This document shows, in pieces, positions 21,818-38,165 of a stretch of DNA of 64,000 nucleotides. The DNA lies in contig CAKRNO010000006.1 in assembly GCA_934371135.1 (NCBI GenBank), positions 7,751-71,750 on the forward strand, given 5' to 3'. The DNA is from an uncultured Eubacteriales bacterium (GTDB lineage Bacteria; Bacillota; Clostridia; Oscillospirales; CAG-272). Below the pieces are notes generated by a model. That model did not search any database. It was given only the letters and a program-made list of their open reading frames with translations, and was not told the DNA's origin. The translations under genes were made by a program, and so were the position numbers. How positions within the stretch are numbered: position 1 is the first letter of the stretch; every line of letters starts with the position of its first letter.

Positions 21818-21856
21818 GAGGCAATCTCCTTTTTTGGATTTCATTTTCGGTATCAT

Positions 21857-21873
21857 GAAAAAACCGTTTTTCT
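21857..21873. promoter_or_regulatory. Predicted LacI-type operator O1 (GAAAAAACCGTTTTTCT)
   Basis: Contains the 14-mer AAAACCGTTTTTCT and the 13-nt palindrome AAAAAC-C-GTTTTT. Lies 3 nt downstream of the -10 of the GH38 promoter. Confidence 0.5.
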
Positions 21874-21875
21874 TA

Positions 21876-21904
21876 ATCATATCACGGCATTTCGTGTTTG
21901 TAAA
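21876..21904 (-). promoter_or_regulatory. Predicted sigma-A promoter of the GH38-HAD operon
   Basis: Minus strand reads TTTACA, a 17-nt spacer, then TATGAT. Confidence 0.45.
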
Positions 21905-21943
21905 CAAAAAAATGAAAAAATCTCAAAAAATTTTAGATTAATA

Positions 21944-21972
21944 GTGCAAAGTACGTCGGAATATGCTATAAT
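21944..21972 (+). promoter_or_regulatory. Predicted extended -10 promoter of the cytosolic GxGYxYP gene
   Basis: TGcTATAAT at 21964-21972 with a weak -35 (GTGCAA) 17 nt upstream. Confidence 0.4.
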
Positions 21973-21976
21973 AGAT

Positions 21977-21992
21977 AAAAAATCGGTTTTCT
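21977..21992. promoter_or_regulatory. Predicted operator O2, degenerate copy (AAAAAATCGGTTTTCT)
   Basis: Resembles O1/O3 at 13 of 16 positions. Lies 5 nt downstream of the -10 at 21967-21972. Confidence 0.35.
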
Positions 21993-22009
21993 AATTGGGG
22001 GATATAACC

Positions 22010-23506
22010 ATGGTGTACGCAATCAGGGCAGGGGAAATGAGCCGGGAGGCGTTCGCGCTCGCGATCTTTTTGCAGGGCGGTGTCAATCGGCGCAGCCGCC
22101 GGCTGGTGCTGGACATTGACAACTATCTTTCTTATATAAAGGATGAGATCGAATACCTGACGCTCGGGGAGGCGATCGCGCGTTTTGCCGGCGAGTTCGA
22201 CGGGCTCGCGGTCTTTGACCTCGGGACGGGGGATGTGTCCGTCAACCTCGCCGCCACGGTCTGCGCGGCGGAGAACCTGCTCGGCGTGCCGCGCGGACTC
22301 CTTGGGCTCCTGCCTGCCGGTCGGGTAGTGTTTGATGCGGCGGATATCCACGGGACGAACGCCGAGCGGCAACGGGAAATATTCTACCGCTATCGTGATA
22401 AACTCGATCGCCGCGGGCTCGTGCATCAGGTGGTCGTCGGCGACGATTACCACCTGCAGCTACGCGACTTTGCCATCGCGCGGGGGTATCTGACCTTCTT
22501 CACCGACGAGACGGAAGAAGATCTGGCACTCCGGCGGGAGGTGCTGACATGGGCAGAGCGCAACATCCCAGTGTACGGCTGGACGACGGACGAGATCGGC
22601 TTCGTCCGCAGCATTTCCGAGTACGGGAACTATGTCATCCCCATGGACTGGTCGTGTAACCACAGTTATTTCGGTACTGACCGGGCGGTGTGCGTGAAGC
22701 AGCAGGCGGACCCGCCGAAGCCCCTCACACCGGGGAAGCATTATCTGACCATCGTCGTATCGGACGGGGATAACGTGCAGTGGCTGGAGCGCGATTTCTC
22801 GACGACGAGCCACTACGGCCAGCGCATACGCTCGGCACATGGCTATCCGATGAACTGGACGATCGCCCCTGCCATGGCGCATCTTTGCCCCGAGGTGTTG
22901 CGCTATATTTACGGGCAGGCAGAGCACGATTACTTTATCACAGGCGTTTCCGGCGTGGGGTACAACAACATCATGACCTACCCGCGCGAGCATCTGTCGC
23001 GGTATGCGGAGCTGACGGCGGAAGCCATGGCATCGGCAGACCTTACCTATATGTGTATGCTCGATAACCTCGCCACTACCCGGGATACGGCAGAGGTGAC
23101 GGCACGGCTCGACGAATTTGCGAAGTATGACGGCATCGGCGGCGGCATCTGGGAGCTTGACCCCGATCGGTACGAGTCGGGGCGGGGGCGCGTCTTTTTC
23201 TCCTCGAACGGAAAGCCGTTCGTCTCCGTCCGCCTGTCGCTCTGGCACCCCTCCAACCGACCGGAGAATGTGACCGCCGAATGGGTGGAGAGCTATGCCG
23301 AACGTATCAACGCGTTGCCGATAAAACCTGACTCCATCGACGGTTATACCGTCCTGAACGTCCACCCGTGGACGACGAACATCGCGGAGCTCGATGACCT
23401 GGTGGCGCACCTCGCCGACCATGTGGAGATCGTCTCCGTCCGGGACTTCCTCGAAGGCGTGCGGCAGAATATCCCGCACAAAAACGCCTGCCCCGAAGCG
23501 TTATGA
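22010..23506 (+). CDS. GxGYxYP-family protein (putative glycoside hydrolase), cytosolic paralogue
   Basis: No signal peptide. Blocks VVSDGDNVQWLERDF, SGVGYNNIMTYP and VLNVHPWT are shared with 31433-34459 and 34536-36170. ATG 22010 follows GGGGGA; the track TTG is at 21995. Confidence 0.75.
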   Translation: MVYAIRAGEMSREAFALAIFLQGGVNRRSRRLVLDIDNYLSYIKDEIEYLTLGEAIARFAGEFDGLAVFDLGTGDVSVNLAATVCAAENLLGVPRGLLGLLPAGRVVFDAADIHGTNAERQREIFYRYRDKLDRRGLVHQVVVGDDYHLQLRDFAIARGYLTFFTDETEEDLALRREVLTWAERNIPVYGWTTDEIGFVRSISEYGNYVIPMDWSCNHSYFGTDRAVCVKQQADPPKPLTPGKHYLTIVVSDGDNVQWLERDFSTTSHYGQRIRSAHGYPMNWTIAPAMAHLCPEVLRYIYGQAEHDYFITGVSGVGYNNIMTYPREHLSRYAELTAEAMASADLTYMCMLDNLATTRDTAEVTARLDEFAKYDGIGGGIWELDPDRYESGRGRVFFSSNGKPFVSVRLSLWHPSNRPENVTAEWVESYAERINALPIKPDSIDGYTVLNVHPWTTNIAELDDLVAHLADHVEIVSVRDFLEGVRQNIPHKNACPEAL

Positions 23507-23515
23507 AAATAATAC

Positions 23516-23646: not shown

Positions 23647-24654
23647 ATGGTAACGATCAGTGATATTGCGGAGAAGGCGGGTGTCGCCAAATCCACCGTA
23701 TCCAATGCGCTCACCGGGAAGAAATTCGTCAGCGAGCCGCTGAAACAACGGATCCTGCAGATCTGTGAGGAAATGAATTTCAGCCCGAACTTTTACGCAT
23801 CGGGGCTGTACGGGCATCGTACCAATATCATCGGGTTGTTCCTCGAGGAGAGCAAGGGCGGCACCTACCATGCCTACTATACGGAGCTCATCGAATCCTG
23901 CCTGAAGTATGTATCCAAGCACGGCTACAATCTTCTCATCTATTATAATCTGGAATCGGGCAGACGCAAAAATGCGCTCACAAAGGGGAGGTCTCCGATC
24001 GACGGCGCCATTGTCAGCGCGCCGCTGATCGAAGATCACCGTATCTTGCAGATCGAGAACAACTCCACCCCGTGCGTGAGCATCGGTAAACCGGGGGACA
24101 ACACACATTTGAGTTATGTCGACATCGACAACGTGAAGCTCATACATGATGCCGTGAACATACTTGCCGTCAACGGTTACGAGCGTATTTATCTGCTCAA
24201 CAGTGATGAGCACCTGTCGATCTCGCAGGAGCGTACCGCCGCATTCCACGCGGCGAAGGAGGAGCGCTCGCTGCCGGTCCATGAAGGAGACGTCGTGTAT
24301 GCGCGCGGGAGCAGCGCGGACGAAGGTAAACATTTTGCTGACGGATTGCTTCGGAAAAATGTCGCTTTCCTCACGGCGAATACCCGTCTTGCCGAGGGTG
24401 TGTATGCCGCGGCGGAGGCGGCGGGACTGGAAATCGGGCGCGAGGTCGGGGTGTTCGCACTCGGCGGAGAAAAGAACGAGAAGGTGACGCCGAACCTCGC
24501 CTATGCGAGCCAGGACTATGCGCGCCTTGCCAAAATGGCGGCAAAATGCCTCATCAAGCAGCTGGAGGGGGCAATCGAGGATGAAGCCCCCGCAGTGGAG
24601 ACTGCGCTGATCGCCAGTAAGATTCACTTCGACTCCTCTGTGAACCGGGGTTGA
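23647..24654 (+). CDS. LacI family transcriptional regulator
   Basis: N-terminal HTH MVTISDIAEKAGVAKSTVSNALTGKKFVS and a periplasmic-binding-protein-like core. RBS AAAGGAGAA. Confidence 0.9.
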   Translation: MVTISDIAEKAGVAKSTVSNALTGKKFVSEPLKQRILQICEEMNFSPNFYASGLYGHRTNIIGLFLEESKGGTYHAYYTELIESCLKYVSKHGYNLLIYYNLESGRRKNALTKGRSPIDGAIVSAPLIEDHRILQIENNSTPCVSIGKPGDNTHLSYVDIDNVKLIHDAVNILAVNGYERIYLLNSDEHLSISQERTAAFHAAKEERSLPVHEGDVVYARGSSADEGKHFADGLLRKNVAFLTANTRLAEGVYAAAEAAGLEIGREVGVFALGGEKNEKVTPNLAYASQDYARLAKMAAKCLIKQLEGAIEDEAPAVETALIASKIHFDSSVNRG

Positions 24655-24687
24655 CCCGCACCCCCATGCGCCATTCGGCGCTTCGAC

Positions 24688-24929: not shown

Positions 24930-24959
24930 TTGACAACTGACGTTTTCGTGCGTTATAAT
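24930..24959 (+). promoter_or_regulatory. Consensus sigma-A promoter of the 25370-38165 operon
   Basis: Perfect TTGACA, an 18-nt spacer, then perfect TATAAT. It lies in an AT-rich pocket about 400 nt upstream of the first start codon. Confidence 0.6.
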
Positions 24960-24971
24960 AAATTGAACAAC

Positions 24972-24987
24972 AAAAAACCGTTTTTCT
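24972..24987. promoter_or_regulatory. Predicted operator O3 (AAAAAACCGTTTTTCT)
   Basis: Same 16-mer as O1. Starts 13 nt after the -10, so it covers the expected transcription start. Confidence 0.5.
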
Positions 24988-25112
24988 ACTTGCGCATACA
25001 TCGCCGGTCGGCGTCATGTAGCCGGTAGGGAAAGAACCACTCCGTCTCCACTGTTGGCTCATGTAAAAGGCTGACCGCCTCCGCGGTAGACGGGGTCATT
25101 TTTAGACCGTTC

Positions 25113-25128
25113 AGAAAAACGGTTTTCC
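25113..25128. promoter_or_regulatory. Predicted auxiliary operator O4 (inverted copy)
   Basis: The reverse complement contains the same 14-mer AAAACCGTTTTTCT. Centre-to-centre distance to O3 is about 140 bp. Confidence 0.4.
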
Positions 25129-25369
25129 AAATCCGGCGGCAAAATCACGCGGCAAATGCCGTGCCGGTACCGCGGTCTCCCGCCATGGATGCCATGGTCG
25201 CTGCCACAGAGGGCAGAAAAGCGGCACGGCGTGACGTAGCCGTCCGCTTCGATAAGACCCCCGGCTCCGGGACGGTTTCTCGCAGGGGGCAAAAACAAGT
25301 GAATCCGGGCATACGCCCAAAAAATAAACCACCGCGTACGCATACGCAAAAAAAGAAAGGATGGACCCC

Positions 25370-28048
25370 ATGAAAAAAAGAGCACTGGTCATTCTCCTCT
25401 GTCTGTGTCTGTGCCTGACGCTGTGCTTCTTCGTTGCTTGCGGCGACGAGGAGGACACGACGCCCTGCACCGAACACACGGACACGAACAACGACGGTAT
25501 CTGCGATCGTTGCGGCGCAAAGATTGAAAAGCCCAGCAAACCGGATCAACCGGACAATCCGAATCCGCCCGACCAGCCGGACAATCCGGATCCGCCTGCC
25601 AAGACACCCGTGACGGGCATCACGGTCTCCACCGATGATGACGAAGGCGACGGTTCCATGGAGAACCCCTTCACCGTCCGTGTGGCGCAGGGCAATCAGT
25701 TGCAGCTCTCTTACGCTGTCAGACCGAGCGGCGCGACCGACAAGACCTTCGCCTGGGCGGCGGGGACGGTTGCGAACGGCGTGTTCACTGCGGCGGACAA
25801 TACCGGTCTTTCCTTTACCGATAACGGTACGCGCCTGACGATCGAGGCCTCTGCCACCGCCACCTCGGCGGTCGTCCGCGGTCTCGCGAACGACGGCAGC
25901 GGCGTCAGCGTGTATCTCTCCGTCGTCGTCGAGACGTACAATCCCGTGACCGGGATCACCTCCGGCAAGCTGCCGACGTCCGATGACGAAACCTACAACT
26001 ACATTTTCGTGACCGCTCTCGGCACCAAGTGGGATATGAGCGGTGCGCAGCTCGGCCGCAGAGACGAGCTCCTGAACGGTCAGATCTTCGGCGGCAAACA
26101 GGCGCCGCGCAACCTGACCTATTGGCCGAACCTGCACAACTTTGCAATTGCGGTCTCGCCCGACGATGCGACCAATCCCGCGATTGTCATCAGCTACACC
26201 GATGATACCGTCATCCGTGTAGACGTGAACGGCACCTGGACCGCCCTGAAGGCAGGCGTGACCGTCGTGACGGTGTCTTCCTACACCGAGCCGAGCGTCG
26301 CCATCAAGATCAAGGTCGTCGTCAAAGAGACCCTGTATCCCGGTATCCTCATGGAGGACTATCTGAATACCACGACATCCACCCTGGATTCCTGGGATCT
26401 CGATACTGACCATGCGAGCCCGGCACAGGACGCGCGCTATGACGACTGGCACCTGGTGATGCTCCAGACCAACCAGGAGCGCGGTCAGACCGGTGCCGAC
26501 AACAACCAGAAGATCTTCTACATGGGTACCGCCGATCGTCCGTACGGCATCTGCCTCGAGAACAATATCGGCGCGAACTCCGGTGGGTCTCTCTTGGAGG
26601 CAGCATCGCTCATGTGGGCGAAGCTGACGATCCCCTCCGGCGCCGTGACCTTCAACATCAAGTTGAGCAACAACGATAAGGTGCACGGTCAGTACCGCGT
26701 CCTCTTTGTCTCCGAAGACGGCACTGTGACCGTTCTCACGAACGGTTGGCAGGGCTTCTCCGGTCCGATCAACGAAACGACCCAGAAACTCGTTCTGCCG
26801 GAATCCATCAAGGGGCAGACCGGTGCGATGGTCATCGAACACCGCGTGACCGAGTTCGATAACAACGCCGAGTTGCAGATCAAAGTGATGAAGTTCGAGG
26901 GACAGGTCGGTGTCACCGGCGTCAACCTCGTTAAGTCCTCCGGCACCTACAAGCCGGGTCAGAGCTTCACGCTCGTTGCCTCTGTTTCCCCGAGCAACGC
27001 CACCAATGATAAGATCCTGTTCTACATCAAGGACGAGAGCGCGAACCTCGGCGTGACGGTCGATCCGAACACGGGCGTCGTGACGATTGCAGAGGGGACC
27101 GCGGCAGGCACCTACTACATTATGGCGAGATCTGCAGAGAACGCCAACATTACCGCGACTTACACACTCACTGTGACCGCCGATGAGATCGAGGTCAACC
27201 AGTGGGAGGGCAAGTCGGAGATCCTGGACGGCGTGCAGGGCATCCTCTGGACGATCGTCGGTGACTATGACGCGGGCGTCGGCGAAGGTGCTGACCTCCG
27301 TATGGGCGGCGGCGACTGGTCTGCTCTGAAACTGGCTGATCGCAAGATCAAGAACAACGCTTACATCCTGACCTTCGGCGCGCGTGTGTTCCACCGCGAC
27401 GGAGAGACCTATCCGAAGTTCGTGGTGAAGGTCAACGGTACCGTCATCCGCGGCATCGGGCAGACCGAGGACTGGTTCTATGTCGATACCGACGCGACCC
27501 AGTACTGCAGCTATGACCTCTCGGCTTACGTCGGGCAGACCGTCACGATCGAGATCGGTATCACGCAGGGCACGCACGCTGTTGTGCAGAAGATTGCGTT
27601 TACCGGAACGTCTGCGACGCTCTGGGAGAACAAGGCGGATATGCTCGACGAACAGAACGATCCGTGGACGCTGACGGGTAACTGGGACGCAGGCGTCGGT
27701 GAAGGCTACGATATCAAGGACACCGGTTCCGCCATCTCCAACACCTTTGTCATCGGCGCAGGCTACAACAGCCAGTTCACCTTCAAGGCACGCGTATTTC
27801 ACCGTGACGGTGAAACGTATCCGGATATCAAAGTGACCGTGAAGGTCGGAGACGGCGATCCCGTCGTCATCCGCGCCATCGGGGTCGACGGCGACACCGT
27901 CCATGTGGACACCGACGCCGAGCAGTCCTTTACCTACGACCTCTCTGCCTATGCAGGGCAGGAGATCACGATTTCCATTACCCTTGAGAATGCGGCAACG
28001 CACTGCGTCATCACCTACATCGCGATGACGGGCAAGACCGCTGAATAA
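25370..28048 (+). CDS. Large surface lipoprotein: Cys/His/Asp mini-module, Big_2 Ig-like domains and two tandem CBM-like C-terminal modules
   Basis: RBS AAAGGA, lipobox FFVACG, CTEHTDTNNDGICDRCG. Big_2-like segments (VTGITVS..., VTGVNLVKSSGTYKPGQSFTLVASVSPSNATND). Duplicated ~139-aa modules start with WT(I/L)(V/T)G(D/N)(Y/W)DAGVGEG. Confidence 0.8.
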   Translation: MKKRALVILLCLCLCLTLCFFVACGDEEDTTPCTEHTDTNNDGICDRCGAKIEKPSKPDQPDNPNPPDQPDNPDPPAKTPVTGITVSTDDDEGDGSMENPFTVRVAQGNQLQLSYAVRPSGATDKTFAWAAGTVANGVFTAADNTGLSFTDNGTRLTIEASATATSAVVRGLANDGSGVSVYLSVVVETYNPVTGITSGKLPTSDDETYNYIFVTALGTKWDMSGAQLGRRDELLNGQIFGGKQAPRNLTYWPNLHNFAIAVSPDDATNPAIVISYTDDTVIRVDVNGTWTALKAGVTVVTVSSYTEPSVAIKIKVVVKETLYPGILMEDYLNTTTSTLDSWDLDTDHASPAQDARYDDWHLVMLQTNQERGQTGADNNQKIFYMGTADRPYGICLENNIGANSGGSLLEAASLMWAKLTIPSGAVTFNIKLSNNDKVHGQYRVLFVSEDGTVTVLTNGWQGFSGPINETTQKLVLPESIKGQTGAMVIEHRVTEFDNNAELQIKVMKFEGQVGVTGVNLVKSSGTYKPGQSFTLVASVSPSNATNDKILFYIKDESANLGVTVDPNTGVVTIAEGTAAGTYYIMARSAENANITATYTLTVTADEIEVNQWEGKSEILDGVQGILWTIVGDYDAGVGEGADLRMGGGDWSALKLADRKIKNNAYILTFGARVFHRDGETYPKFVVKVNGTVIRGIGQTEDWFYVDTDATQYCSYDLSAYVGQTVTIEIGITQGTHAVVQKIAFTGTSATLWENKADMLDEQNDPWTLTGNWDAGVGEGYDIKDTGSAISNTFVIGAGYNSQFTFKARVFHRDGETYPDIKVTVKVGDGDPVVIRAIGVDGDTVHVDTDAEQSFTYDLSAYAGQEITISITLENAATHCVITYIAMTGKTAE

Positions 28049-28061
28049 CTACGCGACCCGC

Positions 28062-28133: not shown

Positions 28134-29474
28134 ATGAAACACAGAATTACAGCACTTCTTATGGCTGTCATGATCGTGATGACGGCTCTTGTCACGCTCG
28201 TGGGTTGCCGCGTCGGCGGAAACGGTGACGGCGGCGGAACGGGTGGCAAGGGGGATTTGAGCGGCTCTATCACTGTCTGGTGGCCGGGTGGTTCCTCCAC
28301 GACGGAAGCTGCTATCAACAACGCAAAAGCCAAGTATGAGGCGGATCATCCGGGCGTTACCATCAATATCGAATTTCAGAGCACCAGCGATTTCTACGCA
28401 AGCTATACGATGGCGCTGATGGGAAAGAACTTCCCGGACGTTGCCTATGTGGATCATGTATTTGTCCAGCGTCTTGCGTTCGACGGGCTGATTGCCAACC
28501 TGACGGAACTCGGTCTTAATGACCTCAAGGACAACTATATTGATTCTCTCTGGACCCCGAACCTCTCCGGCGACCAGCTGTATGCGTTGCCGATGAGCTC
28601 CAACATCCTGGCACGGGTCTATAACAAAGCCTTGCTTTCCAAGGTGACAGGGAAAGATTTCACGGACGATGATCTGCCGAAAAACTGGAATGAGTTCATC
28701 GCCCTCGGCGAGCAGATCGAAGCCTATAACCAGGCGCACAATCTGACCGGTAACGACAAACTTTATCTGACGACGATTCCCGCCGGCTCGGGTAACGAGT
28801 CGATGGGTGCAATGTTCTTCCTCGCGTATTCCGCACGCAGCGGCGGGACGCTGATGAATGCGGATCTCACCGAGATGACTCTCGCGACGAAAGCAAATAT
28901 CGACGCCGCGACGAAGATCAAATATCTCGCGGATCACGGCTACACGACGACGACCTTCAGCGAGAGCAAGTTCGAGACGGGGAAGGTGGCTTTCATCGAA
29001 ATGGGTCCCTGGAAGCTGACCGACTATTCCCGTATCGACGCCGCAAGCGACGATATCGATTACGGCTACTCGCAGGTGATGCCTTTTGAGAACGGCGGCG
29101 ACATTTCCTCGACCCTGGGGCTCTACTCGCTCGTTATTACGAAAAAGAGCAACAAACAGGCGCTGGCGGCGGACTTCATCAAGTATGTGACGACCGACAC
29201 CGAGGTACAGCTCGCGCACAACACGGTGCAGAACCTCATGCCGACGACCAAAGCCGCGATCGAAAACGAGTTCTACAAGACGCCCGAATGGACGGTTTTT
29301 GTCAACCAGCTCTCGCACGCGGTCGCCCGCCCCGGCTCCGCCGCATGGCCCTCGATCCAGAAGCTCGTGGCGGAATACACGACCGGGCTCCTCAACGGCA
29401 CGCGAGAGGTGGATTATATCTACTCCCTGCAGGCGGCTCTGACCGAGAAACTTGAGGACCTGGAGGACGAATAA
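28134..29474 (+). CDS. Carbohydrate ABC transporter solute-binding lipoprotein
   Basis: RBS GGAGGA, lipobox LVGCRVG, family-1 solute-binding-protein-like sequence. Confidence 0.9.
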   Translation: MKHRITALLMAVMIVMTALVTLVGCRVGGNGDGGGTGGKGDLSGSITVWWPGGSSTTEAAINNAKAKYEADHPGVTINIEFQSTSDFYASYTMALMGKNFPDVAYVDHVFVQRLAFDGLIANLTELGLNDLKDNYIDSLWTPNLSGDQLYALPMSSNILARVYNKALLSKVTGKDFTDDDLPKNWNEFIALGEQIEAYNQAHNLTGNDKLYLTTIPAGSGNESMGAMFFLAYSARSGGTLMNADLTEMTLATKANIDAATKIKYLADHGYTTTTFSESKFETGKVAFIEMGPWKLTDYSRIDAASDDIDYGYSQVMPFENGGDISSTLGLYSLVITKKSNKQALAADFIKYVTTDTEVQLAHNTVQNLMPTTKAAIENEFYKTPEWTVFVNQLSHAVARPGSAAWPSIQKLVAEYTTGLLNGTREVDYIYSLQAALTEKLEDLEDE

Positions 29475-30415
29475 TGGAGGGTGCGGAAGTCTCGGGCACC
29501 AAAGCTCGGAAGAAACACAAGTTTCAGCATGAGCTAAAGGCCTATTCACTGCTTGGCTTCCCGCTCGCGTGGTGGACGCTGTTCTTCGTCGTCGCGTTCT
29601 TTACCGCTCTGTTCTTCAGTTTCACGAACGTATCGCTCAACAAACTGGCAACAGGGGCGGAGATCAAATTTACCCTCGACAACTACAAGCGCATTTTCGG
29701 CTTCGGCTGGAAAAAGTTCGATAAAGAATTCTGGAGCAGTCTCGGCGTGACGATCCGTTGGACGCTGGTGATGACCCTCGGGAATAACCTGATGGGGCTC
29801 CTGTGTGCGTTCCTCATCCACTCGCTGAAACGCGGGAAACGCTTTTTCCTCGCTCTGCTGTTCTGGCCGTCCCTGGTCTCCGGCGTCGTCGGCTCCGATG
29901 TGACGAAGCTGGTCTTCGACTCCGGCAGCAACAGCCTTGCGAACAAACTGATTATGGCATTCGGGCACGAACCGATCCAATGGCTGACGGACGAAAAATA
30001 CGCCCTCATCTCCCTGATGATCATGCCGTTCTTCTTCGGCTTCTGCACCAAAATGCTGATCTATTATTCCTCGATTATCGCGATCCCGAATACGTACAAG
30101 GAAGCGGCGACGCTGGATACCGACAGCCATGTGAAGGTCTTCTTCCATGTGACGCTGCCGCTGATGAAAAACGCATTGATCCTGAATCTGCTCCTGTCGA
30201 TCATCGACGGGTTCAAGATCCTCGGTCCCATGCAGCTCATCACGAACGGCGGCTACGGTACGAATTCGTCCATGCTGTATATTTACAATACGGCGTTTGA
30301 GGACGGGCTGTTCGGGCGTTCCTGCGCGTATGCGACCATTCTGTTCCTGATCATCCTCGCGTTTACGCTCGTACAGCGTAAAATCTCCGGGTCGGAGGTG
30401 GATACCATTGAGTAA
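29474..30415 (+). CDS. Carbohydrate ABC transporter permease
   Basis: Six TM helices and the EAA-type loop EAATLDTDSHVKVFFHVTLP. RBS GGAGGA. Confidence 0.9.
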   Translation: MEGAEVSGTKARKKHKFQHELKAYSLLGFPLAWWTLFFVVAFFTALFFSFTNVSLNKLATGAEIKFTLDNYKRIFGFGWKKFDKEFWSSLGVTIRWTLVMTLGNNLMGLLCAFLIHSLKRGKRFFLALLFWPSLVSGVVGSDVTKLVFDSGSNSLANKLIMAFGHEPIQWLTDEKYALISLMIMPFFFGFCTKMLIYYSSIIAIPNTYKEAATLDTDSHVKVFFHVTLPLMKNALILNLLLSIIDGFKILGPMQLITNGGYGTNSSMLYIYNTAFEDGLFGRSCAYATILFLIILAFTLVQRKISGSEVDTIE

Positions 30416-30482
30416 CTTCTTGAAGAAATGTATCTGTCTGCCCGCCGGGGGTGTCTCCGCGTCCGAGGTCTGGGAGACGGCG

Positions 30483-31406
30483 ATGCCGGAAGCTCCCGTA
30501 GCGCCCGTCGAAAAAGAGGAGGCGCCCGCCGCGCCGATGAGTGCGGAAAAGGAGAAGAAGGTCAGGTCCGCGAGGCGGAAAGAGATCACGTTCCAGGTGA
30601 TCTGCATCCTGCTTCTTTCGCTCATTGCCTTCTGCCAGCTGTTCCCGTTCTGGCTCAAGCTGGTGGACTCGCTCCAGAGCCCGGATCTCATCCCGGACAG
30701 CGACGTGCTGTACGTCTGGCCGGTGAACGGAACGCTCAAAAACTATGCGACCGCCCTGAAGGTCAGCGGCTTCTGGCGCGCGCTCGGCAACACGCTGTTC
30801 CACTCGGTGATGTTCACCGCCATCAGTCTCCTGATTGCCATCGTCGTCGGGTATGTACTCGCCAAGATGGAGTTCCGGGGGAAAAAGGTCGTGAGCAATC
30901 TGCTGCTCTGCACCATGATGGTACCGGGCGAGGTGCTGATGATCCCGAACTATATTCTCGTGATGAATATGGGGCTGAACTACTCCATCTGGGGGCTGAT
31001 CCTGCCCGGTATCGTCAATGTGTTCGGCATCTTCCTCATCAAGCAGTACATGGCGAATATCCCGCAGTCAGTGCTTGAGAGCGGGGAGCTTGACGGATGC
31101 GGTGAGCTCCGCAAGATCTTCCTCATCGTCGTCCCGATGTCCAAGCCAGTCCTCATCACCTATGTGATCCTGACCTTCGTCAGTACCTGGAATGAGTACC
31201 TCTGGCCGATGGTCATGCAGTCGAGCGGCAGTACGGTCGAGACGCTCCAGCTCATCATGTACAAGTTCTATCCCGCGCTCGGGAACTACGCGGACGGGTT
31301 TGTCCGCTCGGCGGGCATGATCCTGATCACGCTGCCGATCATCATTATGTATATCATCTTCCAGCGCTACTTTTTGGAACAAAACAACGTGGGCGGCCTC
31401 AAATAA
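30483..31406 (+). CDS. Carbohydrate ABC transporter permease with a charged N-terminal extension
   Basis: EAA loop ESGELDGCGELRKIFLIVVP. ATG 30483 has GGGAGA 6 nt upstream. The ORF is open back to TTG 30408. Confidence 0.85.
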   Translation: MPEAPVAPVEKEEAPAAPMSAEKEKKVRSARRKEITFQVICILLLSLIAFCQLFPFWLKLVDSLQSPDLIPDSDVLYVWPVNGTLKNYATALKVSGFWRALGNTLFHSVMFTAISLLIAIVVGYVLAKMEFRGKKVVSNLLLCTMMVPGEVLMIPNYILVMNMGLNYSIWGLILPGIVNVFGIFLIKQYMANIPQSVLESGELDGCGELRKIFLIVVPMSKPVLITYVILTFVSTWNEYLWPMVMQSSGSTVETLQLIMYKFYPALGNYADGFVRSAGMILITLPIIIMYIIFQRYFLEQNNVGGLK

Positions 31407-31432
31407 CCGCCCCTCCAAGGAAGGAGAACCCC

Positions 31433-34400
31433 ATGAAAAGACAGACACGAATCAGACTCCTGACGATGCTCGTGTGCTTTGTCCTGATGTTCGCCTGCAC
31501 GCTCAGCGCCTGCAAGGACGCTGTGCCGACGCCGGACCCGGATAAGGTGGATACCTGTACCACCCATGTGGACAAGGACGGCGACGGCAAGTGTGATAAG
31601 TGCGGTGCCGAGGTGCCGAAGACACCGACGACCTGCACCGTGCACGTGGACAGTGACGGCGACGGCAAGTGCGATAAGTGCGGCGCCGATATGCCGATCA
31701 CCTCGGAGACGTTCTCGTATTTCGGGAATACAAAGCTTACCGAGGACAAGAAAGTGTACCTTTTGAACAGCACCGCCGACGGCTACAACTACGACGGCGA
31801 CCAGCTGTTCCTCTGCCAGGCGTTGCAGGGGCTCTTTGCAAGAAAGAACGTCACGTTTTATGTCGACAGCCACTATATGACGAACGGCACGAACGTGGAT
31901 ATGTTCTATCTCGAGCAGGCAAAAGAAAACTACGGCGTGACGTATGAGTCGATCTCGCTCGAGCAGGCAGTACAGATGTACATTGACACATGGAGTGCCA
32001 ATGTGGCGGACGGCACCTGGGGCTCCCAGATCGCGCTCGACAGCTACAACAACGTGGTGGGCGTCACCGCCTACACCGAGACCTCCGGCGCCGGGTACAG
32101 CACCCCCGGCTACATCGTGTACAAAGCGGGCGACGTTTCGGTCAATATCGCGGCGACCCTGTGCGGGATTACCGGGTTCCTGCCCGTATGCGAGGACGAC
32201 GTCAATGCCTGCAAGGCAATGGGTCTTGTTGAGAAATTCAATGTGAACAGCGCCGCTCTGACCTACAAGTGGCTGTTCAACAACGTCATGAGCGAGCTCT
32301 CCACCTCCGGCCTTGTACACCAGAACTATACCTCCCCCGAGGGGACGAACAAGTTCATCAAGGACTACGGTATCTGCAATAAGTTCTTCCACGTCTACTA
32401 CGATGAGACGTCGATCGTCGGTACGAGCTTCAAGAAGACGCTCCACAGCTTCCTTGAGCCGAACTGCCCGATCTTCGGCTACACCTATTCCGAGGACAGA
32501 GACGTGGCGTTCTTCTCCCAGTACGGGCAGTTCATCATTCCGACGGACTATACCTGCAACCTGACCTTCCTCGCGGCAGATGCCTTTGCGGGGCAGACGT
32601 TCAGCCAGCCCAACAAGGATTACGAAAAGCCGGCGGAATCCGGTAAACACTATGTGGCGTTCGTCGTCTCCGACGGCGATAACGCGACCTACTGGCAGAA
32701 TACCGCCGCTTTCGCGACCAACTACATGAACGCAGCGGGGCGCGAGAACGATACCTTCCCGGTCACCTGGTCGATCACCCCCTCGCTCGCCGACCTGATG
32801 CCTCTGGTGCTGGCGAACGTGTATGCCAACCAGGCGAACGCATACGACTACTTCTGCGCACCGGTCTCCGGGCAGGGGTATATCAATGCGGGCAATTACG
32901 CGGCGCAGAAGAACGGCGAGTATTTCGCGGACTTCTGCAGCAAGCTGGATGTGTATATGAAGAAAGCTGGACTGTCCGTTGCGACGGTCATCGGCGGCAA
33001 CAGCCAGAACGACGTCGCAAACGTCCTCGCAGGCTATGCCGGATGCGAGAGCGTCAAGGGCGGTATCGTCTATGACGGTTACAAGTATTTCGGCACGAAC
33101 CCGGGCGGCGTCATGTGGGTGAACGGCAAGCCGTTTATCCAGCCCCGCGACAGCCTGTGGGAGACGACCCCGGCGTACATCGCGGCGCGTATCAACACCT
33201 ATTCCACCGACATTACGACCATTGACGCCTATACCATCGTCAATGTGCATCCGTGGAGCCACTCCTACGCGGATATCCGTACCATTGTCGGTATGCTGAA
33301 TGACAATGTGGAGGTTGTCAGCGTGGACAGACTGGTCACGATGATGACCGATAACGTCACCGATAAATCCAGCACGAACTCCTTCCAGGTGCCGGAGCGC
33401 AACGGTATCAGCATCTCCGAGGACTACCTGCGGCAGAACCCCTCGCTGATCCCCGTCGATCCGCTTTTCAACGACTTCCTGCTGTGGGCGGAGGACTGGA
33501 CCGGCAGCGGCGTGACCTATAACAGCAGCGACCGCGCCTGCTCCAACGTCGGCGCCATGTATAAGGGCAATATTTCCATTGCGGCGGGCTCGACCGGCAC
33601 CAAGACGCAGTTCACCCTGCCGGATATCGCCGACTACTGGTTGAGCTTCAATGCCCGCTGTGACGCGGAAAATCCCGCGACGACAGCTACCTTCGACGTC
33701 ATTATGACGGTGGACGGCGTCCGCAAGACCGTGATGAAGAACGTGACGCTCCGCGGCGTTTCCGGGACGGAGACGCAGACCGTGAACGGTGACGGCTGGC
33801 AGTGCTTCGCGTTCCCGATTGCGCAGTATTTCGCCGGTTACCGCGGCAAGACCTGCACGCTGGAGATCGACGTGCATGACGGCGGTGCGGGGATCCGCCT
33901 CGACCAGGTCACGTTCAAGGACAGAACCGTCGATCCGGCGGTCGACCAGACGACGGTCAATCCTTTCGACAACCGGTTCGGCTCCTCGACCGAGGACTGG
34001 ATGCTCGGCGAGCAGTACAAGACCAGCCAGTACTACTGGTGGGATGTCATCGACCGTGAGAACCTCGCTCCCACGAACTCGCTGCAGATCGACTGCTCCG
34101 ACGGCGGCGGTGACGAGAAGCGCAACGGCAACACGAATATGTGGATGGCGAAGCACTATGTCCTGCCCGAGAGCGACAAGATCACGCTTACGTTCCGCGT
34201 GACGAGCGATAACGACACCGGCGCGTACATGAAGATATCGCTGTATGTCGACGGTCAGTACATCGTACTGTACGACTGGCAGAGCGCACGGGACAGCAAG
34301 GGCAATACGACCGTGACGGTCAACCTCAGCGAGACCTATCCCGATATCGATTTCAGCGGTCAGGAAGTGACCGTTGTGTTCGAGGCGCGTGACGGCGGCC

Positions 34401-34459
34401 GTAACAACGGCGTCGGCGAAGCGTGCAAGCTCCACTACTTTACGACCAAAGCGGACTAA
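31433..34459 (+). CDS. 1008-aa lipoprotein: two Cys/His/Asp mini-modules, a GxGYxYP-family core and two C-terminal CBM-like modules
   Basis: RBS AAGGAAGGAGAA, lipobox LSACKD, VVSDGDNATYWQNTAAF, SGQGYINAG and IVNVHPWS. Confidence 0.8.
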   Translation: MKRQTRIRLLTMLVCFVLMFACTLSACKDAVPTPDPDKVDTCTTHVDKDGDGKCDKCGAEVPKTPTTCTVHVDSDGDGKCDKCGADMPITSETFSYFGNTKLTEDKKVYLLNSTADGYNYDGDQLFLCQALQGLFARKNVTFYVDSHYMTNGTNVDMFYLEQAKENYGVTYESISLEQAVQMYIDTWSANVADGTWGSQIALDSYNNVVGVTAYTETSGAGYSTPGYIVYKAGDVSVNIAATLCGITGFLPVCEDDVNACKAMGLVEKFNVNSAALTYKWLFNNVMSELSTSGLVHQNYTSPEGTNKFIKDYGICNKFFHVYYDETSIVGTSFKKTLHSFLEPNCPIFGYTYSEDRDVAFFSQYGQFIIPTDYTCNLTFLAADAFAGQTFSQPNKDYEKPAESGKHYVAFVVSDGDNATYWQNTAAFATNYMNAAGRENDTFPVTWSITPSLADLMPLVLANVYANQANAYDYFCAPVSGQGYINAGNYAAQKNGEYFADFCSKLDVYMKKAGLSVATVIGGNSQNDVANVLAGYAGCESVKGGIVYDGYKYFGTNPGGVMWVNGKPFIQPRDSLWETTPAYIAARINTYSTDITTIDAYTIVNVHPWSHSYADIRTIVGMLNDNVEVVSVDRLVTMMTDNVTDKSSTNSFQVPERNGISISEDYLRQNPSLIPVDPLFNDFLLWAEDWTGSGVTYNSSDRACSNVGAMYKGNISIAAGSTGTKTQFTLPDIADYWLSFNARCDAENPATTATFDVIMTVDGVRKTVMKNVTLRGVSGTETQTVNGDGWQCFAFPIAQYFAGYRGKTCTLEIDVHDGGAGIRLDQVTFKDRTVDPAVDQTTVNPFDNRFGSSTEDWMLGEQYKTSQYYWWDVIDRENLAPTNSLQIDCSDGGGDEKRNGNTNMWMAKHYVLPESDKITLTFRVTSDNDTGAYMKISLYVDGQYIVLYDWQSARDSKGNTTVTVNLSETYPDIDFSGQEVTVVFEARDGGRNNGVGEACKLHYFTTKAD
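31556..31684 (+). repeat. In-frame tandem repeat (78-nt period) encoding CT(T/V)HVD(K/S)DGDGKCDKCG twice
   Basis: GACGGCGACGGCAAGTG(T/C)GATAAGTGCGG occurs twice, 78 nt apart. Confidence 0.9.
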
Positions 34460-34471
34460 AAAATACTGATG

Positions 34472-34511
34472 CCCCGGGGCAGCGGGCGCGGTGACGCGCC
34501 CGCCTCCGGGG
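34472..34511 (+). other. Intercistronic GC-rich stem-loop between the two GxGYxYP lipoprotein genes
   Basis: Stem CCCCGGGGCAGCGGGCGCG-GTGA-CGCGCCCGCCTCCGGGG with no proper U-tract. Confidence 0.4.
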
Positions 34512-34535
34512 TCATTTCGGAGAAAGTAAAAGTAT

Positions 34536-36170
34536 ATGAAAAGAATCATCGCATTGGGCATGGCGCTTGTCATGCTGCTTCTGACGCTCACGGGTATGCT
34601 CACCGCCTGCGGGGGGGACGATGTGACCCCGCCGGACGACACGCCGACTCCCGCGGAGCCGGAAAAGTTCGGCTATGCCGACGGCTTTTCCTACTATCAG
34701 GAACTGGTTATGAACCCCGATAAGCACCTGTACGTCTATAACCGGACGGAGACGCTCACGAACGAGGAAACGGTGCTGGCGGAGGCGATCCAGGGCATCT
34801 ACGCCCGCACGGGTGCGAAGTATTACCGCTACTCGAACGATGCCTATGCCACATGGCTTGACGACATGATCGAGCACTACGGCTTCACCGCCGAGGACAT
34901 CACCCTGCGCGAGATGGTCGAGGGCTTTATCCGCGACTACGGCAACAAGTACGTCCTGTACGATTGGCAGACCCTCGCGGAGAGCATCAACAGCGCCTGC
35001 ACGATCGCCGGCGCGCTGGATTACCTGCCGGTCGATGTGACCCTGCGCGAAAAGGCGGAGGCGTGGGGGCTGACGCTCGGCGTAGACGCTTCCCAAATGA
35101 CGGAAAAAGCCTGCTTTACGGCTTACAAGGACAAGTTGAGCAATACGGGTCTCGTGCAGCAGTCGGCGGGGAATATCCGCCTGCGCGACTACGGCATTGC
35201 CTGCCGCTATTTCTTCTTCTACCGTGCCGGGCAGGAGACGGAGGACATGATGTTCCGCGGTCAGGTGCAGGGCTGGGTCGAGGAGAATGCGCCCGTGTTC
35301 GGCTGGGGCCCGAATGAGGAGGCGGAGCACGTGACGGTTTCTTCGCAGTACGGGCAGTTCACCATCCCGAGCGACCACTGCTTCAATATGTCCGTGTTCG
35401 CCTGCCGTGCGGCGTTCGGCGAGGTGGACTTTACGCAGAGTGCCAAGACCACCGGGGTCCGCGCTGAAGCGGGCAAGCACTACGTCTGCATTATGATGAG
35501 CGACGGCGACAATGTGCAGACGTGGTATAACACCTTCCCGTTCAACAGCAAATACTTCGGGGCGGAGCGCGCGGATTTCCCCATGGGGTGGAGCGTACAG
35601 CCCTCCCTTTCCGACCTCGGACCGAATGTTCTCGGCTACCTGAAACGGAACGCGAACGCCAAAGACTATTTTGTCTGCTCGGTCTCCGGGCAGGGATATA
35701 TGTATCCGCAGATCTATCCCGATCTCAAGGGCTTCACGCAGGGGCTCAGTGCCTACCTGCGGCGGACGGATCTCTCCGTCGTGCAGATCCTCGACTCGGG
35801 CTACAGCGCCAAGGTCGTGGAGGCGTACGCGCAGATTCCCGAGCTGAAAGGCGCGATCTACTGCTACGGTGACAAATATGCCGCGGGTAACGGTTCGGTC
35901 TACTGGTCGAACGGCAAGCCCTTTGTAGCCATCCGCGAGACGCTGTGGAGTGCCAATGTCGAGGCAATGGCGGAGCGTATCAATGGCTATGCAAAGGATC
36001 CGACGACGATCGAGGGCTATACCGCCATCAATCTGCACCCGTGGTCGATGAGTTATCAGGATGTCGTAAAACTGGTGGAGCTGCTGGATGACGATGTCGT
36101 CGTGGTCACGGCGGACGATTTCATCCGATTGATTGCCGAGAACGTCCCTCAGACCGACGTCTCCCGGTAA
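34536..36170 (+). CDS. GxGYxYP-family lipoprotein (putative glycoside hydrolase)
   Basis: RBS GGAGAAAG, lipobox MLTACGG, MMSDGDNVQTWYNTFPF, an exact GQGYMYP motif, and INLHPWS. Confidence 0.8.
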   Translation: MKRIIALGMALVMLLLTLTGMLTACGGDDVTPPDDTPTPAEPEKFGYADGFSYYQELVMNPDKHLYVYNRTETLTNEETVLAEAIQGIYARTGAKYYRYSNDAYATWLDDMIEHYGFTAEDITLREMVEGFIRDYGNKYVLYDWQTLAESINSACTIAGALDYLPVDVTLREKAEAWGLTLGVDASQMTEKACFTAYKDKLSNTGLVQQSAGNIRLRDYGIACRYFFFYRAGQETEDMMFRGQVQGWVEENAPVFGWGPNEEAEHVTVSSQYGQFTIPSDHCFNMSVFACRAAFGEVDFTQSAKTTGVRAEAGKHYVCIMMSDGDNVQTWYNTFPFNSKYFGAERADFPMGWSVQPSLSDLGPNVLGYLKRNANAKDYFVCSVSGQGYMYPQIYPDLKGFTQGLSAYLRRTDLSVVQILDSGYSAKVVEAYAQIPELKGAIYCYGDKYAAGNGSVYWSNGKPFVAIRETLWSANVEAMAERINGYAKDPTTIEGYTAINLHPWSMSYQDVVKLVELLDDDVVVVTADDFIRLIAENVPQTDVSR

Positions 36171-36281
36171 GAGCACCAAGCCTTGTCGAACGGGTTGCCC
36201 GTGCCATCGCGCGGTGTGACCCGTTTTGTCGGGTGCGCCGACGGCGCATCCCGCCTGCAATGTTGGAATAAAGGAGACAGT

Positions 36282-37232
36282 ATGGAGACGAAACCGATTT
36301 TATTCACCCCGGCGACGAAGTCGTATCTGTGGGGCGGGACGGCACTGATGGAGAAGTGGGGCAAGACTTCGCCCGAAGCGACGGTCGCCGAGTGCTGGGA
36401 ACTTTCCGCGTATGCGGGGTGTGAGAGCATCGCTCGGGGCGGAGACTGCGACGGAATGCCCCTCGGGGAGATTGTGGAAACTCACCCGGATTGGTTCGGC
36501 GCCGCCGTTCGGGACGGGTTCCCGATCCTCGTCAAGCTCATCGACGCGGCGAAAGACCTGTCCGTGCAGGTACACCCGGACGATCTGTATGCCCGCGTGC
36601 ATGAGGGAGATCGGGGCAAGACCGAGATGTGGTATATTGCGGACGCCGTACCGGGTGCCGCCATCTATTACGGCTTTGCACGGGACGTCAGCCGTGAGGA
36701 AGTGGAAAAGAGTATCCGGGAGAATACCGTCACCACCCTGTTACAGAAGGTCCCCGTTACAAGGGGAGATGCGTTTCTTGTCCCAGCAGGGACGGTACAC
36801 GCTCTCCTTGCCGGGGTGACGGTCATTGAAATTCAGGAGAGCTCCAACGTGACCTACCGGGTGTATGACTATGACCGCCGGGATAAGGACGGCAACCCGA
36901 GACCGTTACATATTGAGAAAGCCTTGGAGGTGATGAACCTCCGGGCAAGGGAAGTACCGCAAGCCAAAACAGCCACTACAGTTTCTACCGGTGTCACGGA
37001 ACGCAAGCTCGCCTGCTGTCATTACTTCCGCACGTCGGAAATTAATATCCATGACGGAACCTATGAGATAGCCCCGAAAGATACCTTTGTGACCTTTACG
37101 GTCGCGGACGGTGAGGGGATCTTCACGGACGACGGGAGAGAAATCCGAAAAGGGCAGACATGGCTCATCCCGAACGGCTGCTCTGCAAGAATAGAAGGAA
37201 AAGGTCTGACACTTGTCACGACGGTTGTCTGA
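36282..37232 (+). CDS. manA: Mannose-6-phosphate isomerase, class I
   Basis: RBS AAAGGAGA before METKPILFTPATKSYLWGG. Metal-site motifs SVQVHPDD and KTEMWYI. The track start at 36183 is an unsupported extension. Confidence 0.85.
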   Translation: METKPILFTPATKSYLWGGTALMEKWGKTSPEATVAECWELSAYAGCESIARGGDCDGMPLGEIVETHPDWFGAAVRDGFPILVKLIDAAKDLSVQVHPDDLYARVHEGDRGKTEMWYIADAVPGAAIYYGFARDVSREEVEKSIRENTVTTLLQKVPVTRGDAFLVPAGTVHALLAGVTVIEIQESSNVTYRVYDYDRRDKDGNPRPLHIEKALEVMNLRAREVPQAKTATTVSTGVTERKLACCHYFRTSEINIHDGTYEIAPKDTFVTFTVADGEGIFTDDGREIRKGQTWLIPNGCSARIEGKGLTLVTTVV

Positions 37233-37235
37233 ACT

Positions 37236-38165
37236 ATGAAATACTATATCGGAATCGACATCGGCGGTACCTCTATCAAGGCAGGTATCGTCGATGAGAA
37301 TGGGAATATCCTCGTCAAGGGTGCCGTAAAGACCGACGCAAGACAGGAACGCCTTGCCCCCGATGCCGCCGCCCTCGCAGAACAGCTTCTCCTACAGGCG
37401 GGGCTCAAAAAAGAGAATATTACCGGGGTCGGTATGGGCATCCCCGGGACAGTTGACGCGAAAAACGGGATTGTACGGTACTCGAATAATATCGCCATCA
37501 GCGACCTGCCCATTGCGGCACAGTTCCGCGCCATCTTCGACTGCCCGATCGAGATCGGGAACGACGCAGACGCGGCGGCACTCGGGGAGTTGTATTTCGG
37601 CTCCGCCCGGGGGACGCAGAACGTCGTATTTGTTACGCTCGGTACCGGGGTCGGTACGGGCATCATCCAGAACGGCAAGCTGCTTGCCGGGAGCGAGGGG
37701 GGACACCTCTGCATCCGTACCGGCGGGGTACAGTGTACCTGCGGCAGACACGGCTGTTGGGAAGCCTATGCTTCCGTCACGGCACTGAAACGTCAGACCC
37801 ACGCCGCCTTTATCCGTCGGCAGAGCGCAGTAACTGCCGCCGTCAGCCGTAAAGACATCACCGGGCGGACCGCCTTTGACTGCGCCCGTGCGGGGGACGA
37901 GATCGCCGCCGCCGTGGTGGAACGGTACCTCGGCTATGTGGCGGAGGGGATCGCCGACCTTGTGAACGTGTTTCATCCGGAATGTGTCCTCATCGGCGGT
38001 GGGCTCTCGAATGAGGAACCGAAATACTTTGAGCGCATTGCCGCCCTCGCGAATGCGGAGGTGTTCGGACATGAGCGCCTCACCCCGACGCCGATCCGCG
38101 CCGCCGCCCTCAAAAACGACGCCGGGCTCCTCGGCGCCGCCGGTCTTGCCATCGCGGCGGAGTAA
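37236..38165 (+). CDS. ROK family sugar kinase (gluco/manno/fructokinase-like)
   Basis: IGIDIGGTSIKAGIV ATP-binding motif and the ROK zinc motif CTCGRHGCWEAY. Confidence 0.9.
   Translation: MKYYIGIDIGGTSIKAGIVDENGNILVKGAVKTDARQERLAPDAAALAEQLLLQAGLKKENITGVGMGIPGTVDAKNGIVRYSNNIAISDLPIAAQFRAIFDCPIEIGNDADAAALGELYFGSARGTQNVVFVTLGTGVGTGIIQNGKLLAGSEGGHLCIRTGGVQCTCGRHGCWEAYASVTALKRQTHAAFIRRQSAVTAAVSRKDITGRTAFDCARAGDEIAAAVVERYLGYVAEGIADLVNVFHPECVLIGGGLSNEEPKYFERIAALANAEVFGHERLTPTPIRAAALKNDAGLLGAAGLAIAAE

Follow-up and report, generated by a model that had tools for sequence, protein, structure and literature searches.

A LacI-associated locus with three GxGYxYP paralogues and mannose-catabolism genes in an uncultured Eubacteriales bacterium

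The GxGYxYP proteins and their neighbours

We analysed a stretch of 64,000 nucleotides from an uncultured Eubacteriales bacterium (contig CAKRNO010000006.1, positions 7,751 to 71,750), referred to below as the window. Its part between 17.9 and 38.2 kb encodes three paralogues of the GxGYxYP family, surrounded by genes for a sugar importer, mannose catabolism and a LacI-type regulator. An earlier inspection of the letters alone (hereafter the sequence-only reading) had described this region as a mannose-linked glycan utilisation locus, and the listing of open reading frames (ORFs) together with Pfam scans places all the elements that it named at the same coordinates. Indeed, the three GxGYxYP proteins score above the Pfam gathering thresholds and carry the motifs quoted for them, one being free of a signal peptide and two bearing lipoboxes. 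Pfam and NCBIfam likewise recognise the neighbours as a LacI regulator, a solute-binding protein (SBP) with permeases, a Big_2 protein, a mannose-6-phosphate isomerase (PMI), a ROK kinase, a glycoside hydrolase of family 38 (GH38) and a hydrolase of the haloacid dehalogenase (HAD) type. The Pfam scan of 17.9-38.2 kb also bears out the statement that no classical endo-glycanase family is encoded there.

The three paralogues, here called GxG_A, GxG_B and GxG_C, are all encoded on the forward strand. GxG_A (22010-23506, 498 aa) has no signal peptide, while GxG_B (31433-34459, 1008 aa) and GxG_C (34536-36170, 544 aa) are predicted lipoproteins, with the lipoboxes LSAC (followed by K) and LTAC (followed by G), respectively. 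Lipoboxes and signal peptides were assigned by eye and with a simple regular expression, and the positions of residues and motifs were counted by hand from sequences and alignments. Family membership was judged on the Pfam families PF14323, PF16216, PF20957 and PF20958. The GxGYxYP_C domain scores 152.7, 136.0 and 183.7 bits in GxG_A, GxG_B and GxG_C (cut-off 27). In GxG_C all repeat domains exceed their cut-offs (third domain 60.8 bits, N-terminal domain 32.9, second domain 25.3); in GxG_B this is true of the third (46.9) and second (32.1) domains, the first reaching 21.2 bits against a cut-off of 23.9. GxG_A is recognised by its third repeat domain (50.7 bits, above cut-off), its first and second repeats having no Pfam match, and it aligns along its whole length to residues 70-541 of GxG_C. 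NCBIfam gave no match for any of the three. With pairwise identities of only 30-33%, they are old paralogues rather than recent copies. GxG_B has a composite layout: the lipobox is followed by two Cys-rich repeats, the GxG module (~91-642) and two C-terminal beta-sandwich-like modules (~660-1008). The latter two are relatives of one another (hhalign 87%, E 4e-6) and show a weak relationship to modules of the Big_2 protein.

The signature blocks are well preserved in all three proteins, where the SDGDN block reads VVSDGDNVQW, VVSDGDNATYW and MMSDGDNVQTWY, the SG(V/Q)GY block SGVGY, SGQGY and SGQGYMYP, and the HPW block NVHPWT, NVHPWS and NLHPWS, respectively. The motif that names the family is exact in GxG_C only (GQGYMYP), its counterparts being GVGYNNI in GxG_A and GQGYINA in GxG_B. 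It is loose across the family, since even BT2193 of Bacteroides thetaiotaomicron, the member of known structure (3SGG), reads GSSYIFP. In BT2193, Glu272, Asp331 and Asp333 have been proposed as the catalytic triad (Rigden et al., 2014; PMC4071793). The SDGDN block corresponds to Asp331-x-Asp333-Asn334 of this protein, and the equivalent of Glu272 is also kept in our three proteins. The putative triad would thus consist of E195, D252 and D254 in GxG_A (plus N255; SDGDN at 251-255), E354, D414 and D416 in GxG_B (plus N417; D355 adjoins the Glu), and E262, D323 and D325 in GxG_C (plus N326). SDGDN is found in 119 of 120 homologues, for the A type and the C type alike; moreover, E262, D323, D325, H315 and H501 (GxG_C numbering), and likewise D420, are invariant in 50 sequences.

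Structure prediction followed by a Foldseek search, as the sequence-only reading had suggested, assigns GxG_C to the 3SGG fold (E 6e-38, TM score 0.81/0.86), with the SDGDN block holding the proposed catalytic Asp residues. This match was established on the AlphaFold2 model of GxG_C alone (predicted local distance difference test score, pLDDT, 93). Beyond 3SGG, it is only the barrel of GxG_C that weakly resembles other proteins, namely PuuE allantoinase, deacetylases of carbohydrate esterase family 4 (CE4) and the deacetylase domain of NDST1, a heparan-sulfate N-deacetylase. Sequence, profile and fold searches of the PDB to April 2026 found no solved relative of the GxGYxYP proteins besides 3SGG. 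The family comprises ~3,700 clusters (3,701) at 50% identity, and more than 120 clusters hold GxG_A orthologues of 488-505 aa; those orthologues that lack a signal peptide and whose flanks are visible adjoin GH38. Dockerins, lectin-type modules and modules for cell-wall binding are found on long family members, and one such protein has a PTP-like phytase domain. In one relative (P0360) the C-terminal part of GH38 is joined to a GxGYxYP module, although this may be a partial gene call.

Upstream of GxG_C and GxG_B lies the gene for the Big_2 lipoprotein (25361-28048, +, 895 aa; 25370 and 892 aa if read from the second Met), which has a Pfam Big_2 match and the lipobox FVAC (followed by G). Its AlphaFold2 model (pLDDT 87.5) is an all-beta chain of Ig-like domains and domains resembling carbohydrate-binding modules (CBMs), with two tandem module copies at the C-terminus; Foldseek matches were of binding or scaffold type only, none of them to a catalytic fold, and NCBIfam gave no match. 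The family is narrow (~50 clusters, all unnamed) and lies on the same contigs as GxG genes. In other genomes, modules of its C-terminal type are fused to GxGYxYP proteins of ~900 aa. We regard the Big_2 lipoprotein as a putative surface glycan-binding partner, with the same module acting in trans here and in cis elsewhere. Directly after the lipobox stands a Cys-rich motif, C-T-x-H-x-D-x-(D/N)-x-D-G-x-C-D-(K/R)-C-G, present in one copy in the Big_2 lipoprotein (25466-25516) and in two copies in GxG_B (31556-31606 and 31634-31684). It recurs in some orthologues (4 of 34 Big_2 ORFs and 5 of 35 GxG_B ORFs), nowhere else in the window or the related loci, and has no Pfam match. It could be a metal-binding stalk, or an anchoring or contact module shared by the two proteins.

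The importer is of the ATP-binding cassette (ABC), CUT1 sugar type. It consists of a lipoprotein SBP (28134-29474, +; Pfam SBP_bac_1 and SBP_bac_8, lipobox LVGC) and two permeases (29474-30415 and 30408-31406, both +; Pfam BPD_transp_1). Similarity of the SBP to solved binding proteins in the PDB gave no clue to its ligand. The locus has no gene for an ABC ATPase; in 13 related loci a MalK/MsiK-type ATPase gene adjoins PMI.

The catabolic genes flank this set on both sides. On the reverse strand, GH38 (18974-21817, 947 aa) is a predicted cytosolic alpha-mannosidase without signal peptide (N-terminus MKRRIVHLISGTHWDREW); its sequence has the N-terminal, the middle and two C-terminal GH38 domains of Pfam and the metal-binding H-x-D, seen in GTHWDREW. 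The nearest solved structures are those of Enterococcus faecalis (3LVT/5KBP, E 2e-95) and Streptococcus pyogenes (2WYH). It is directly followed by the HAD-IA type hydrolase (17945-18973, -; Pfam HAD_2 and Hydrolase), of 342 aa from a TTG codon with an ATG 7 codons further in, which has the MDLDGT motif and an N-terminal extension of ~85 aa. Matches to NCBIfam subfamilies were weak, and the PDB holds no relative at E 1e-3. At the other end of the locus, class I PMI (36282-37232, +; Pfam PMI_typeI_cat) passes the TIGR00218 equivalog model with 145 bits against a cut-off of 116.2. It precedes a ROK-family sugar kinase without DNA-binding domain (37236-38165, +; Pfam ROK 227.8 bits), which misses the glucokinase subfamily TIGR00744 (232.2 bits, cut-off 260.35) and, to judge from its sequence, is probably a hexokinase or mannokinase. 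In one relative (L088, 2097-3953) PMI and ROK form a single protein of 618 aa.

Predicted operators and conservation of the locus

The LacI-family repressor (23647-24654, +; Pfam LacI and Peripla_BP_3) is encoded between GxG_A and the transporter genes, a position conserved in relatives; in three clusters (P0226, P0264, P0273) GxG_A is even fused to a LacI regulator, giving proteins of 813-823 aa. We searched the window for palindromes and found AGAAAAACGGTTTTTCT at four sites, two in the 192-bp gap between the divergent GH38 and GxG_A genes and two upstream of the Big_2 gene. The predicted operator O1 (21858-21873) lies just downstream of the GH38 promoter TTTACA-17-TATGAT (21904-21876, -), and O2 (21977-21992) just downstream of a TATAAT (~21966) that precedes GxG_A. 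O3 (24972-24987) immediately follows a sigma-70 promoter, TTGACA-18-TATAAT (24930-24959, +), which matches the consensus at 12 of 12 positions and is predicted to serve an operon from Big_2 to ROK. O4 (25113-25128), an exact match to GAAAACCGTTTTTCT, lies 141 bp from O3 within a ~400-nt leader (24960-25360) that separates this promoter from the Big_2 start codon. Rfam gave no match anywhere in the window, this leader included.

Counting both strands, the operator pattern matches the window 11 times where 0.91 matches would be expected, and O1-O4 account for 8 of the 11. An overall scan for terminators and promoters performed no better than on shuffled sequences; only individual promoters adjoining operators were therefore used. 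The geometry of these promoters and operators fits repression, as far as it can be read from the DNA, and we infer that the palindrome is bound by the LacI protein. Among 81 related loci from distant genomes, 33 likewise carry the motif at the corresponding promoters, with 74 sites in total against 3.2 in block shuffles; there it stands before Big_2 or SBP genes, between GH38 and GxG_A, and before the genes for PMI, the MsiK-type ATPase and GxG proteins. Nothing speaks more strongly than this shared operator for a single regulon of the GxGYxYP genes, the importer, the GH38-HAD pair and mannose catabolism.

The related loci, about 80 in number (81), were collected by looking up gene neighbourhoods and by scanning one genome of each species. 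The whole gene order is shared by genomes of Clostridia, Bacilli and the Mollicutes type, and since it recurs in dozens of species-level genomes, the arrangement is more than chance. The block Big_2, SBP, two permeases, long GxG and short GxG is present in about 30 of the ~80 loci. The full order, with HAD-GH38 divergent from GxG_A, LacI, Big_2, SBP, two permeases, GxG_B and GxG_C, is found in L087/L004 (L087 lies on the same contig as L004, for which the DNA fetched had stopped at the Big_2 gene), and in L088 as far as the fetched DNA reaches. L045 has HAD-GH38 on the opposite strand and GxG_A, LacI, Big_2, SBP, permeases, GxG_B, PMI and ROK, without GxG_C; in L013 the core block is followed by GH38, HAD and PMI, and in several loci PMI comes directly after the block. 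The GH38-HAD pair itself is kept in nine loci (L009, L013, L045, L055, L063, L066, L070, L087 and L088). In Paenibacillus and Bacillus, two lipoprotein GxG genes lie between GH92 and GH38-GH125.

Genes for GH38, PMI, GH92, GH125 or GH130 occur within 10 kb in 34 of the 81 loci, an underestimate owing to the flank limit. An earlier count, with mannose genes in 7 of 25 core loci, proved misleading and was set aside: the 10-kb flank stopped at the Big_2 gene, with GH38-HAD just beyond. Among 99 other neighbouring ORFs, a Pfam census found no recurrent classical endo-glycanase or additional CAZyme (carbohydrate-active enzyme) family. A family of ~700 aa with no recorded Pfam match adjoins GxGYxYP genes and GH38 in L006 (11699-13840), L027, L075, L080 and L084, carriers that include Paenibacillus and Bacillus; the pathway may have in it a further, unrecognised enzyme.

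The nearest genomes are metagenome-assembled genomes (MAGs) of uncultured Eubacteriales or Clostridia, one with 84% identity at the protein level, and an exact copy of the 544-aa GxG_C protein is present in Hadza human-gut metagenomes. The closest public contig, L015 (CAVDSZ010000017.1), shares 91.5% DNA identity across 11 kb. We rejected its label, Akkermansia muciniphila, as probably a binning or labelling error, all other relatives being Clostridia or Bacilli MAGs. In a Hadza MAG (L048, 1-15751) the flanks formed by LacI and PMI-ROK are 88-89% identical in DNA to window positions 23822-24655 and 36290-38330, and between them lie genes for an SBP, two permeases, a RicinB-like protein, a GH127-like protein and one GxGYxYP protein of ~900 aa. 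A cassette seems to have been exchanged here within one and the same regulon frame.

Substrate and activity of the GxGYxYP proteins

A Gram-positive polysaccharide utilisation locus (PUL) combines a regulator, an ABC transporter and CAZymes. In the window, LacI, the lipoprotein SBP with two permeases, and GH38 as at least one CAZyme are co-located, and the locus resembles such PULs in uniting regulator, importer and glycoside hydrolases in one co-regulated block. It differs from them in that the presumed key enzymes come from a family that stands outside CAZy according to the tools and literature searched. Because of conserved synteny, the shared operator and the fusions of PMI with ROK and of GxG_A with LacI, we consider the GxGYxYP genes, the ABC importer, GH38-HAD and PMI-ROK as one mannose-tied functional unit. 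This part of the sequence-only reading is upheld, whereas its identification of the surface lipoproteins as the depolymerases goes beyond any activity known for the family. Taken together, we favour, with a probability of about one half, the reading of 17.9-38.2 kb as one LacI-repressed Gram-positive regulon for the utilisation of an alpha-mannose-rich glycan, which the GxGYxYP lipoproteins would cut on the cell surface.

Under this reading, LacI bound to O1-O4 would, without inducer, block the divergent promoters of GH38-HAD and of GxG_A-LacI as well as the promoter of the Big_2-to-ROK genes. At the cell surface, the Big_2 lipoprotein would hold the glycan with its chain of beta-sandwich modules, and GxG_B, aided by two extra binding-type modules, would cut it to oligosaccharides together with GxG_C. 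The conserved Glu and Asp-x-Asp would form the cutting site where the 7-stranded barrel and the repeat domain face each other across a cleft. The fragments would then be imported by the SBP and two permeases, powered by an ATPase encoded elsewhere. In the cytosol, GH38 would take off alpha-linked mannose, the HAD hydrolase may remove phosphate, by analogy with the GH38-plus-phosphatase step of yeast-mannan degradation in Bacteroides, and GxG_A might cleave a type of bond beyond the reach of GH38. Mannose would finally be converted to fructose-6-phosphate by the ROK kinase and PMI.

As to the substrate, fungal mannan or mannoprotein is most likely, or else an N-glycan of the high-mannose type. 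In the Bacteroides yeast-mannan route, mannose attached via phosphate is released by GH38, after which phosphatases take off the phosphate itself (PMC10154615). We are reminded of this route by the conserved GH38-HAD pair, and by this analogy would slightly prefer fungal mannan or mannoprotein.

A link between the family and mannose is already in print. BT3857 and BT3859 of B. thetaiotaomicron belong to the alpha-mannan-responsive PUL69, GxGYxYP genes lie beside GH92, GH38 and ROK genes in Caldithrix, and bonds of alpha-mannan or of the N-glycan core were proposed as targets (Rigden et al., 2014; PMC4071793). The same authors found the family over-represented in the gut. In addition, yeast mannan induces MAN-PUL3, the locus of BT3857 and BT3859 (PMC7825182). 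The claim of the sequence-only reading that this locus gives the family its first substrate context was hence too strong.

Compared with the BT2193/3SGG family, the window shares the Pfam domains, the fold of GxG_C, the site made of Glu and Asp-x-Asp-Asn, and the occurrence in carbohydrate loci with GH92, GH38 or ROK. It differs in having Gram-positive lipoproteins plus a cytosolic form and a dedicated Big_2 lipoprotein family, and in the use of an ABC importer and LacI where the other has SusC/D and a hybrid two-component sensor. With MAN-PUL3/PUL69 (BT3853-BT3862) it has in common two adjacent GxGYxYP genes in a locus tied to alpha-mannan; MAN-PUL3, however, has GH92 and the endo-acting GH99, whereas the window is without a classical endo-enzyme and adds the cytosolic paralogue, GH38-HAD and PMI-ROK. 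New here are the Gram-positive version of ABC type, the cytosolic paralogue linked to GH38-HAD, the family of partner lipoproteins and a defined operator predicted for LacI.

The N-glycan systems of Streptococcus pneumoniae and Bifidobacterium longum likewise include an ABC importer and a ROK gene. Their known enzymes for high-mannose N-glycans are EndoD, GH92, GH38 and GH125 in the former, and an operon of three GH38 and one GH125 in the latter (PMC10154615). The order of events would be the same as in the window, from a surface enzyme through ABC import and cytosolic exo-alpha-mannosidases to mannose catabolism. However, these systems use endo-enzymes of GH85 or GH18, a position that the GxGYxYP lipoproteins would fill here, and no gene related to N-acetylglucosamine (GlcNAc) was seen in our locus.

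Several facts weigh against the favoured reading. Assays of the GxGYxYP proteins from the mannan PUL are reported to have found no activity (Rigden et al., 2014; PMC4071793), and in the literature searched, to April 2026, we found one passing mention but no characterisation of the family after that study; no member has a demonstrated activity. The barrel is no less similar to CE4 deacetylases and PuuE allantoinase than to any glycosidase. The mannose genes indicate the end product and not the bond cut by the GxGYxYP proteins, and the different cassette in L048 implies that the cassette may target a decoration other than mannose. Finally, operator binding, lipidation and operon structure are predictions, and the organism is uncultured.

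Possible, if rather improbable, is an action of the GxGYxYP lipoproteins on the core of N-glycans. Like endo-beta-N-acetylglucosaminidases, or by cutting the beta-linked core in some other way, they would free high-mannose, plant or fungal N-glycans, and GxG_A would finish the core (e.g., Man-beta-1,4-GlcNAc) after GH38. Indeed, the loci are without GH18, GH85 and PNGase, and also without GH2, GH5 and GH130 where N-glycan systems need them (PMC10154615), and L006 has GH130 and no GxG_A visible in the fetched DNA. Moreover, Rigden et al. (2014; PMC4071793) favoured beta-linkages on the basis of a GH9-like inverting triad, and noted that the PUL in which BT2193 adjoins GH29 and GH2 is unresponsive to mannan. 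Yet no GlcNAc catabolic gene or hexosaminidase was seen in the regulon of any locus (among the 25 most frequent of 139 families in the census), and the conserved GH38-HAD pair suits phosphomannan better. We consider it unlikely that the proteins are not glycosidases at all, that is, CE4-like, metal-independent hydrolases removing an acyl, phosphodiester-linked or amide group that blocks GH38 and other exo-mannosidases. Such a role would agree with the structural neighbours of the barrel, which are limited to PuuE allantoinase, CE4 deacetylases and the deacetylase domain of NDST1, with the invariant H315, D323, D325, D420 and H501 in the strand-end motifs SDGDN, ILDSG and NLHPW, with the HAD phosphatase as conserved partner, with known fusions to PTP-like phytase domains, and with the glycosidase assays that had failed by 2014.

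On the other hand, the parallels with CE4 motifs were read by eye, from sequence rather than coordinates. The window proteins do share the C-terminal barrel of the superfamily of 7-stranded beta/alpha barrels (CE4, PuuE, and the catalytic domains of GH38 and GH57), but identity is at most 15% and the conserved Glu is supplied by an N-terminal three-repeat domain. The catalytic and metal-binding residues of CE4 and related families are reported to be absent, the conserved cleft lies between the two domains, and the acidic triad superposes on a GH9 site (Rigden et al., 2014; PMC4071793). Highly improbable, in our view, is that the lipoproteins only bind glycan or that the adjacency of the genes is meaningless, even though activity has never been demonstrated for the family. 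Mere binding would not explain why a paralogue in the cytosol keeps the same invariant acidic residues, and for binding the locus is already equipped with an SBP and a dedicated lipoprotein of binding type; chance adjacency is excluded by synteny together with the operator shared across distant genomes.

Returning to the surface cleavage of an alpha-mannose-rich glycan, a broader proposal may be put forward, which we hold tentatively and with less than even confidence. GxGYxYP could be a new two-compartment glycoside hydrolase family, in which surface lipoproteins replace GH18/GH85 or GH76/GH99 and the cytosolic form finishes the imported fragments. A widespread LacI-controlled pathway, by which uncultured Clostridia, Bacilli and Mollicutes-type bacteria of the gut use alpha-mannose-rich glycans, would then owe its key missing activity to this family, and the modules common to the Big_2 lipoprotein and long GxGYxYP proteins would form a new CBM family. 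The family is sizeable, over-represented in the gut and still without a known activity twelve years after its structure. The locus and its relatives offer a compact test bed, with a regulon defined by a predicted operator, three enzyme architectures and a dedicated binding partner, and cultured carriers exist among Paenibacillus and Bacillus spp. and in Mycoplasmatota strain zrk7. Should an activity be found, it would add a family to CAZy and account for the way in which many uncultured Gram-positive bacteria of the gut exploit mannose-rich glycans in the absence of known endo-enzymes; without biochemistry, the present work adds context to a hypothesis already in print (Rigden et al., 2014).

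The upstream glycan locus and antisense reading frames

Upstream of the mannose-linked block, the window contains a second lipoprotein-rich glycan locus (558-17559), in which the palindrome scan found no operator of the AGAAAAACGGTTTTTCT type. It encodes a SASA-type esterase (558-2783), a GLUG protein (3004-4671), a Flg_new_2 protein (9103-10539), a GH43 lipoprotein (10536-12254), a 518-aa lipoprotein with no Pfam match (12251-13807), and an SBP of 660 aa with two permeases (13808-17559). The SASA-type esterase and the GLUG and Flg_new_2 proteins have in common a C-terminal domain of ~250 aa, with identities of up to 62%.

The window also has antisense ORFs of great length, up to 1287 aa, that overlap real genes, at 13793-15880 (-), 18131-21994 (+), 25145-28003 (-) and 31367-34642 (-), and one such ORF exceeds the true gene in length. 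The ORF at 13793-15880, the only one of these that was scanned, has no Pfam match. These reading frames appear to be a by-product of the G+C content of ~59%.

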